DNA of 64,000 nt from the NCBI RefSeq assembly GCF_003334335.1, contig NZ_QOWQ01000019.1. One strand, written 5' to 3'. The stretch's first letter is position 1; each line of letters starts with the position of its first letter. The notes beneath the pieces are model-generated. The model saw nothing but the letters and a program-made list of their open reading frames with translations. It had not been told where the DNA came from and did not search any database. Source of the stretch: Escherichia coli. GTDB lineage: Bacteria > Pseudomonadota > Gammaproteobacteria > Enterobacterales > Enterobacteriaceae. The position numbers were made by a program, and so were the translations under genes. Below, one piece after another: positions 7,813-9,996 of this stretch.

Positions 7813-9996
7813 TCAGGCACCAACAATATTGCGCAGATCAAACACCCGACACGCCTTGCCTTCTGAACGCGGGATACTGCCACAGTTAACGATCATCACA
7901 TCGGTAGAGATCCCCACCATCGACTTAATCCGATGGCGCAGCTGGTGGCATACCTGGCAACGCTGCTCATGCGTCAATGTCAGGCTACTTTCTTTCAACT
8001 CCACTTTCACAGAAAGTGAATCAAGATGCCCCCGGCGGTTCACCTCCAGTTGGTAATGCGGCGATAAATGTTCGAATTTGACAATCTCTTCTTCCAGTTG
8101 TGACGGAAAGACATTTACACCGCGAATAATCAACATGTCATCGCTGCGTCCGCTGATGCGATCCATGCGGCGCATAGTCCGCGCCGTTCCTGGTAACAGT
8201 CGGGTTAAATCACGCGTGCGGTAACGAATGACCGGCAATGCTTCTTTGGTCAGCGTGGTGAATAACAGTTCGCCATGTTCACCATCGGCAAGCGGTGTGC
8301 CGTCATGAGGATTAACAATTTCAGGATAGAAATGATCTTCCCAAATGGTTGGGCCGTCGGTAGTTTCCAGACACTCCATCGCCACCCCCGGCCCCATCAC
8401 TTCTGACAGGCCATAAATATCCAGTGCGGTGATCCCCAGGCGACGCTCAATCTCTTTACGCATGGCCTGTGTCCACGGCTCAGCACCAAATACTCCAACC
8501 CGCAGCGAGCAACCGCTGGCATCACCGCCCAACTGCCGCTCCAGCTCTTCAATCAGGTTAAGGCAATAAGATGGCGTAACCATGATCATATCTGGTTGAA
8601 AATCACGGATCAGTTGCGCTTGTTTTTCCGTCTGCCCGCCAGACATCGGGATCACCGTAGCGCCCAGACGTTCGGCACCATAGTGCGCACCCAGCCCACC
8701 AGTAAACAGGCCGTAACCATAGGCAACATGAATTTTGTCTTTGGGCGAGCCCCCTGCCGCACGCAAAGAACGCGCTACAATATTGGCCCAGTTATCAATA
8801 TCGTTTTGCGTATAGCCGACAACTGTCGGTTTACCTGTGGTTCCCGAAGAAGCATGAATGCGCACCACTTGTTCCATTGGCACGGCAAAGGTGTCAAAGG
8901 GATAGTTGTCGCGCAGATCCTGTTTGGTGGTACAGGGAAATTTACGCAGGTCTGAAAGTTCCCTGAAATCATCAGGATGTACGCCTGCTGCGTCGAATTT
9001 GCGCCGATACATCGGCACATTTTCATACGCGTGTTTGAGCGTCCATTTCAGACGCTGTGTTTGCAACGCCTGTAACTCATCAACAGACGCGGTTTCAATC
9101 GGGTCAAGCTTTGTATTGGTTACCCAGGTACCTTCTTCCCAGGCTTTACGTTTGGCGTCGAGCCTCTCCTGATTACAAATTCCGCGACCGTTAATTACTT
9201 CGTTAAACTCCTGCCAGTCGATCTCACCAAAGCGGTAGTGACCGCTTTCAGTGTCAAAATGCAGATCCGGGTCAGGAACGGTCATACCGAGCATTTCAAC
9301 CTGTGGAACGGTGTTATCCACGAAACGCTGGCGGAGTTCGTCGTTGGTGAAACGTTTGATTTTCCAGGTGAGACTTCTGGCGCTGTTTGGCGAGTTATCA
9401 TCGTTTGGCCCGAACATCATTAAGGCTGGCCACCAGAAACGGTTAATGGCGTCTTGCAACATCTGCTTTTGAGCTTCGCTGCCCTGCGCCAGTGCCATGC
9501 AGGCTTCAAACCCCTGACGCTGGTGAAAACTCTCTTCTTTGCAGATTTTCACCATTGCTCTGGCATACGGGCCATAAGAAGTGCGGCATAACGCCACCTG
9601 ATTGACGATCGCTGCGCCATCCACCAGCCAGCCGATAACACCGATATCAGCCCAACTCAATGTCGGATAATTAAAGATGGAGGAATATTTCATCCGTCCG
9701 TCGAGCATTTTTTGGTAGATGTCTTCTCTGGCGCAGCCCAGTGTTTCGGCGGCGCTATAGAGATACAGACCATGACCGGCTTCATCCTGCACTTTGGCCA
9801 ACAGAATGGCTTTACGCCGCAAGGTTGGTGCGCGAGTGATCCAGTTACCTTCAGGCAACATACCAACAATCTCGGAGTGCGCATGCTGCCCAATCTGGCG
9901 GATCAATGTCTTTCGGTAAGCATCGGGCATCCAGTCCTGTGGCTCGATAGCCGTTTCCTGGGCTATCCGTTGCTCAAAGCGTTCTTCTTGGGTCAC
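7813..9996 (-). CDS. paaK: Chimeric in-frame ORF: PaaA (phenylacetyl-CoA epoxygenase subunit A) residues 1-292 fused to PaaK (phenylacetate-CoA ligase) residues 3-437
   Basis: The 727-aa translation starts as PaaA ([22 protein letters not shown]...KAWEEGTWV) and continues as PaaK ([26 protein letters not shown]...[11 protein letters not shown]). The junction is between 9120 and 9121 (GGTACCTGGGTA|ACCAATACAAAGCTT). The first in-frame codon at 9994-9996 is GTG. Confidence 0.8.

Follow-up and report, generated by a model that had tools for sequence, protein, structure and literature searches.

The phenylacetate (paa) operon of Escherichia coli has been reduced by an internal deletion in the stretch of DNA analysed here, namely 64,000 nt of contig NZ_QOWQ01000019.1 (assembly GCF_003334335.1), referred to below as the window. 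Its first gene, paaA, has been joined in frame to paaK, which encodes phenylacetate–CoA ligase, and everything between the two has gone. With a probability of about 85%, this allele is best explained as the product of one old, spontaneous 7,328-bp deletion by illegitimate recombination, i.e. an ordinary gene loss that left a remnant of a lost pathway.

The fusion open reading frame (ORF) occupies positions 7813–9996 of the window on the minus strand. According to the ORF listing it begins with GTG at 9996, ends with the stop codon at 7813–7815 and encodes a single product of 727 aa and 82.3 kDa. When aligned to the K-12 MG1655 locus (L002), nt 1–876 of the ORF are nt 1–876 of paaA and its final 1310 nt are nt 5–1314 of paaK, with 0 mismatches in either part; since 876 and 1310 add up to the ORF length of 2184 plus 2, the parental sequences overlap by 2 nt (TA), and these form the deletion junction at 9121–9122. 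The paaA-derived part (9121–9996, minus strand) supplies codons 1–292 of 309 and lacks the 17-residue C-terminal tail, and the paaK-derived part (7813–9122, minus strand) runs from PaaK residue 3 to the stop codon. There is one breakpoint, at which no bases have been inserted and 7,328 bp of the K-12 reference are absent, comprising the last 17 codons and stop of paaA, the entire paaB–paaJ segment, the paaJ–paaK spacer, which includes the ribosome-binding site of paaK, and the opening codons of paaK. Once the deletion is applied to K-12, only 2 differences are left in the 6.5 kb surrounding the fusion. What is described here is sequence identity to two known genes, and a chance pattern can be dismissed; the 30-mer that spans the junction is GGTACCTGGGTAACCAATACAAAGCTTGAC.

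Both parental proteins are represented by essentially complete domains. Pfam places PaaA_PaaC at residues 17–291 of the fusion protein (model positions 4–263 of 263), AMP-binding (PF00501) at 357–579 and AMP-binding_C_2 (PF14535) at 626–722 (model positions 1–96 of 96). The NCBIfam model for PaaA, TIGR02156, scores 507.7 bits against a cut-off of 280 and is covered from 1 to 287 of 289, while TIGR02155, the model for PaaK, reaches 788.2 bits (cut-off 646.3) and is covered from 1 to 422 of 422 by residues 301–722; the PaaK part also matches the PaaK structures PDB 2Y4O and 2Y27 (E ~1e-190). This leaves a linker of ~7 residues (294–300) between the two cores. The PaaK part is no longer a stand-alone protein of ~437 aa, the native ATG, the codon following it and the upstream region all having been deleted, and a search of the fusion ORF for an internal start that would yield free PaaK gave no credible candidate, the next ATG being codon 329, so that the 82.3-kDa fusion would be the sole full-length ligase product. 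A first-pass annotation of this DNA had proposed one 727-aa PaaA'–'PaaK ORF with 292 PaaA residues followed by PaaK from its third residue, a complete ligase domain, and intact paaZ, paaX, paaY and PaaX operator; all of these points are borne out, and its placement of the join is correct to the base, within the TA ambiguity.

A protein combining PaaA and PaaK was also sought among 1.84 billion representative sequences. None was found in the 150 best-scoring matches, where one would rank first, the best being a 439-aa PaaK at 601 bits, which indicates that PaaA–PaaK is not a recurring natural architecture. The matches did include PaaK-like ligases with other N-terminal domains, viz. P0089 (701 aa), with an ABC-transporter ATPase domain, and P0045 (635 aa), with a pyruvate:ferredoxin oxidoreductase (POR) domain. 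Each may be a real architecture or a gene-calling fusion; such proteins suggest that an N-terminal extension is not incompatible with the ligase in principle.

The consequences for the pathway can be predicted from what has been lost. Of a functional paa cluster, i.e. paaZ, paaABCDEFGHIJK and paaXY, only paaZ, the chimera, paaX and paaY are left at the locus. Carriers of the deletion are without the epoxidase partners PaaB, PaaC, PaaD and PaaE, the ring-opening isomerase PaaG, the β-oxidation-like enzymes PaaF, PaaH and PaaJ, and the phenylacetyl-CoA (PA-CoA) thioesterase PaaI. Epoxidation requires PaaA, B, C and E, and PaaA is known in PaaAC and PaaABC complexes (PMC4498308, PMC9493321). With the paaB–paaJ enzymes gone, phenylacetate would be unusable as a carbon source, and we infer that the PaaA half of the chimera is inert. 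The predicted phenotype is an absence of growth on phenylacetate in cells whose genes for conversion of phenylethylamine to phenylacetate (tynA, feaB and feaR) are intact.

The allele is found across the world. A search for the junction covered 5,426 complete E. coli genomes and recovered it in exactly five, with 99.9–100% identity across the whole ORF: LR-29-1 (human, Ecuador), GDSC2BY4G (vegetable, China), EEC_W5 (poultry drinking water, Bangladesh), EC416 (pig, Japan) and PEC1009 (wild bird, Pakistan), the last of these a PacBio assembly at 436x belonging to sequence type ST10 and phylogroup A (PMC11556057). Each of these is separated from the window by only 6–11 single nucleotide polymorphisms (SNPs) over 22.6 kb, which makes the window a further carrier. 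In the same set paaA or paaK is present in 3,170 genomes and neither gene in 2,256, and any part of the deleted segment is present in 3,165; the gap corresponds exactly to the five carriers, which is consistent with there being no copy of the deleted genes elsewhere in their genomes. The exact 727-aa protein occurs on at least 385 contigs in a collection of 15 billion proteins (e.g. BEA40385.1 and EEY8281228.1), and a position index places it in 633 blocks, among them human-gut metagenome assemblies. None of the plasmid records in PLSDB spans the junction.

Fifteen distinct carriers were read, nine of them assemblies or metagenomes in addition to the window and the five complete genomes, and the junction is base-identical in all 15. 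Over an alignment of 14 kb the SNPs among them are few and nested, with no obvious homoplasy. PEC1009, GCA_000261145 and the gut metagenome ERZ909660 (L006, L008, L011) have in common a 12-bp in-frame deletion in tynA, equivalent to window positions 12904–12915 and not present in the window, and this sub-clade also shares a synonymous change at nt 1230 of the fusion ORF; two more carriers group with it at one further site. Two sites are likewise shared by EEC_W5 and LR-29-1, and another two by GDSC2BY4G and GCA_964041425. The identical junction together with the nested SNPs indicates that the deletion took place once and that the lineage then diversified clonally. Over 22 kb, the non-carriers closest to the window, CFS3292, STECUZB006 and NCTC9040, differ from it only at SNPs private to the window. 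They contain the full paaABCDEFGHIJK set, and in them the sequences that meet at the breakpoint lie 7,328 bp apart, as in K-12 (7,327 bp in NCTC9040).

Considering how the deletion formed, there are no direct or inverted repeats of at least 7 nt within 60 nt of the parental breakpoints, and no insertion sequence (IS) element or scar is left at the junction. Random joining would give 2 nt or more of overlap in ~16% of cases, so the overlap seen here is within chance and the label of microhomology-mediated deletion, which the first-pass annotation had offered for a natural origin, cannot be claimed; from the bases at the join, the event is best called illegitimate recombination or end-joining. 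The sequence of events that we favour would begin with a deletion arising once on a common phylogroup A (ST10-type) haplotype of E. coli, its ends being joined directly with the 2-nt overlap and with neither a repeat nor a mobile element involved, after which the lineage would have diversified and spread worldwide. The in-frame outcome, which has a chance of 1 in 3, would leave an 82-kDa chimera, for which transcription presumably begins at the intact Pa promoter under PaaX control and translation at the start codon of paaA. Without its partners the PaaA half would be catalytically dead, while the complete PaaK half may keep some ligase activity. The allele would then be most readily understood as the remnant, neutral or nearly so, of a lost pathway, and not as a new function.

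Three other accounts of the junction itself have to be weighed. The clean in-frame join overlaps recognition sites for KpnI (9132) and BstEII (9124), with HindIII (9111) 9 bp away, sites that the first-pass annotation had reported correctly, and such an arrangement might be expected of a lesion engineered by restriction and ligation or by recombineering. The KpnI sequence GGTACC is, however, native to paaA and the HindIII sequence AAGCTT to paaK, while the BstEII sequence GGTAACC is in neither parent and was created by the join, so that the three sites are uninformative about engineering. The same annotation held that natural and engineered origins could not be told apart from sequence, but the question is settled in favour of a natural origin by the wild carriers: isolates from five countries, gut metagenomes and hundreds of contigs all have the identical junction. 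The window contains neither FRT nor loxP sites, and it is not K-12, having a ydbA without IS2 and IS30 and no Rac prophage; engineering is refuted for practical purposes. An assembly collapse or mis-join hiding an intact paaB–paaJ block, a general possibility for any single contig, is more improbable still. There is no repeat at the breakpoint to collapse, the same junction occurs in independent complete long-read assemblies, including the PacBio assembly of PEC1009, and in many independent drafts and metagenomes, and the count of genomes with the deleted segment falls short of the paaA/paaK count by precisely the number of carriers. Somewhat less remote, and still very improbable, is the idea that the allele is not a clonal marker, having spread by homologous recombination or transduction or recurred at a deletion hotspot. 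Carriers do differ from one another next to uspF, and their flanks are indistinguishable from those of many non-carriers; but prophage gain and loss is common within a clone, the SNPs of the carriers fit a tree in which shared markers are nested, with no obvious homoplasy, and with only the 2-nt overlap and no repeat near the breakpoints to guide it, the chance of exactly the same join being made twice is very small.

The fate of the chimera is the more substantial question. The PaaX repressor is released from its operators by PA-CoA and not by phenylacetate, PaaK dimerises via its N-terminal domain, and PaaI hydrolyses PA-CoA, undoing what PaaK does (PMC4498308, PMC9493321). Should the PaaK half be active, it would convert phenylacetate, whether formed by TynA and FeaB or acquired from the gut, to PA-CoA, derepressing Pa, Pz and Px, and PA-CoA would either accumulate or enter a futile cycle through hydrolysis by the broad-range thioesterase PaaY. 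Judged from its domain content, residual phenylacetate–CoA ligase activity is plausible, if somewhat short of an even chance. That such activity is maintained by selection is unlikely, and so is the broader proposal that the chimera is a working PaaX-regulated ligase under selection, with PA-CoA, made from gut or dietary phenylacetate and not degraded, acting as a signal that derepresses PaaX targets or alters physiology in some other way. This proposal draws on the full coverage of the PaaK profile and a PaaA core complete to 287 of 289, on the wild-type state of the Pa promoter, the PaaX operator, paaX and paaY, on an ORF that is intact in all carriers of an abundant allele, and on PaaK-like ligases with apparent N-terminal fusions of 200–280 aa to other domains (P0089 and P0045). 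In Burkholderia cenocepacia, moreover, loss of paaABCDE with retention of PaaK attenuates virulence in a PAA-CoA-dependent manner (10.1101/700799). Against it, the fusion reflects one event only, with a prior of 1 in 3 for being in frame, and divergence since then is too small for purifying selection to be detected, the three SNPs in the fusion ORF of unbiased carriers being two non-synonymous changes (R101L and R331W) and one synonymous change. PaaA normally occurs only in complexes with PaaC and PaaB, and PaaK forms dimers by way of its N-terminal domain; with only ~7 linker residues the chimera may misfold. Since PaaI has gone and PaaY is kept, the main effect of an active ligase would be a futile cycle that consumes ATP. 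The database search described above returned no such architecture among its best-scoring matches, and in some carriers the neighbourhood appears to have decayed further (feaR and tynA in L009, paaZ in L012). A more specific form of the proposal, in which a selected, active and PaaX-autoregulated ligase lets carriers sense abundant gut phenylacetate through PA-CoA that they cannot degrade, the operon remnant having become a signalling or regulatory module much as PAA-CoA modulates virulence in Burkholderia, seems a little less likely again; if true, it would explain both the retention of two complete cores and the success of the lineage.

Several points weigh against a single neutral deletion as the whole explanation. 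The 22-kb flank on the paaZ side, ranked over all complete genomes, varies too little within phylogroup A for monophyly of the carriers to be demonstrated: its haplotype is common to many phylogroup A non-carriers, K-12 derivatives included, and it has no resolving power. What speaks for a single origin is thus the identical junction together with the nesting of the SNPs. The join is also unusually tidy, both equivalog models being essentially complete; of random paaA x paaK joins, only ~0.05% would preserve both cores and the reading frame, a post hoc figure for a single event. As the ORF is intact in every carrier seen, there is some room for selection on its product. Finally, the loss of growth on phenylacetate is a prediction from gene content. 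These points leave a spontaneous deletion, neutral or nearly so, as the preferred reading.

The remainder of the paa locus, which lies in reverse orientation in the window, is largely as in K-12. Downstream of the fusion, the ORF listing and the comparison of carriers show intact genes for the PaaX repressor (6762–7712, minus strand) and the PaaY thioesterase (6190–6780, minus strand), both identical to K-12. Upstream of the fusion gene, the Pa promoter region contains a wild-type PaaX operator, TGATTC(N27)GAATCG (10010–10048, minus strand), which is the only match in the window to the consensus taken from PMC9493321. The divergent paaZ (10281–12326, plus strand) is intact in the ORF listing and has one private substitution, E616D at 12128. 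The paaZ–paaA intergenic region is identical to that of non-carrier genomes. Its sole difference from K-12 is at 10216, where, in paa orientation, the base is A in K-12 and G in every carrier and in each of the three non-carrier controls; it was considered as a carrier-specific promoter change and rejected, the allele being private to K-12. A promoter and terminator scan of 7600–10300 gave nothing above shuffled expectation.

Beyond paaZ lie the genes of the upstream route, all of them intact. These are tynA (12574–14847, plus strand), for the primary-amine oxidase that supplies phenylacetaldehyde, feaB (14905–16404, minus strand), for the phenylacetaldehyde dehydrogenase that makes phenylacetate, and feaR (16640–17545, plus strand), for the activator of tynA and feaB. 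Four SNPs in this part of the window are private with respect to all other carriers and the closest non-carriers, viz. those at 12128 (the paaZ E616 to D change), 13593, 18518 and 18539. Further lesions were seen in individual carriers: GCA_016671645 (L009) has a frameshift in feaR and a nonsense codon in tynA, and the metagenome ERZ28630073 (L012) has a frameshift in paaZ. Both being draft or metagenome assemblies, these lesions may be errors, or else they may represent continued decay of an orphaned pathway.

The neighbourhood of uspF, 18 kb away, varies among carriers, with Rac-type genes (ydfK and ynaM) in three of them and ompT in GDSC2BY4G; in the window ttcA adjoins uspF directly (28232–29850) and the Rac prophage is absent, as in EC416. 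Prophage content thus varies within the deletion lineage. On the other side of the paa locus, the autotransporter gene ydbA is split in the window (193–5859, minus strand, from the ORF listing). Compared with intact alleles of 6,063 nt, 103 bp are missing after codon 91 and a G has been inserted (+1) ~165 nt downstream, near 5587 and 5424, with a stop codon at 5497–5499 between them, and the resulting ORFs are of 120 and 1,756 aa. This ydbA also lacks one 294-bp repeat unit, as does that of LR-29-1. The split may reflect a genuine pseudogene or, the gene being repetitive, a mistake in sequencing; in carriers L008 and L015, ydbA contains IS insertions or deletions.

Public annotation of the fusion is inconsistent. 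In L001 and L003–L007 the NCBI Prokaryotic Genome Annotation Pipeline (PGAP) of RefSeq splits the ORF, which lies at 20001–22184 in those loci (window 7813–9996), into a paaA pseudogene (‘missing C-terminus’) and a 428-aa PaaK (WP_032170297.1), the latter starting at an ATT, codon 300, with no Shine-Dalgarno pairing. GenBank submitters name the whole 727 aa ‘phenylacetate--CoA ligase’. Such inconsistency can make pan-genome tools mis-score the presence of paaA and paaK, as in PMC4951805. The significance of the allele is mostly one of bookkeeping, as a natural deletion in a dispensable catabolic operon. It does offer a clean, single-event marker for a global ST10-type sub-lineage that is present in humans, livestock, wild birds, vegetables and gut metagenomes, and, if the chimera is an active ligase, its carriers would constitute a natural experiment on accumulation of PA-CoA in E. 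coli.

The fusion as such was already known, both from public databases and from Goldstone et al. (Sci Rep 2016;6:30115, PMC4951805), who mentioned that paaA and paaK are fused in DEC6A, DEC6B and further genomes of phylogroup A. There, too, loss of the intervening paa genes has joined these two genes, in the same phylogroup and in several genomes, and on these grounds theirs is almost certainly the allele found in the window. Their paper, however, gives neither a junction sequence nor a functional analysis and regards the fusion as no more than an anomaly of the pan-genome; the breakpoint, size, distribution and domain content were worked out here. A 2026 paper on paa in Microb Genom (PMC13186573) does not use the words fusion and deletion.

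Compared with the wild-type cluster of K-12 and W, the locus, its flanks and the Pa/Pz region with its PaaX operator are the same, and paaX, paaY and the retained coding sequence are 100% identical to K-12, but nine genes and 7,328 bp have gone, paaA and paaK form one ORF and the pathway cannot run. The paa locus is a hotspot of lineage-specific decay in E. coli. Mammary pathogenic E. coli (MPEC) strains have a separate deletion of paaZABCDE (PMC4951805), and ~61 complete genomes (~2% of those positive for paa) have a partial or interrupted paaB–paaJ segment. Independent lesions include a paaG annotated as frameshifted in NCTC9040, an IS4 within paaB–paaJ in 23CRST047 (H146) and an IS3-family element in paaK in CFSAN051542 (H6). 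These deletions, insertions and frameshifts affect the same operon and likewise reflect lineage-specific decay of a dispensable pathway, but they have other breakpoints, involve other genes and produce no in-frame, two-domain chimera.

The closest functional parallel is the paaABCDE knockout of B. cenocepacia described by Lightly et al. (bioRxiv 10.1101/700799), in which the attenuation of virulence depends on synthesis of PAA-CoA by PaaK. There, as in the E. coli carriers, the ligase is kept and the epoxidase is lost, so that any phenylacetyl-CoA made could not be consumed. That strain differs in having been engineered, in belonging to another genus, in possessing separate, native PaaK enzymes and in being regulated by PaaR and not PaaX, whereas the E. 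coli allele, known here from its sequence, is a natural deletion.

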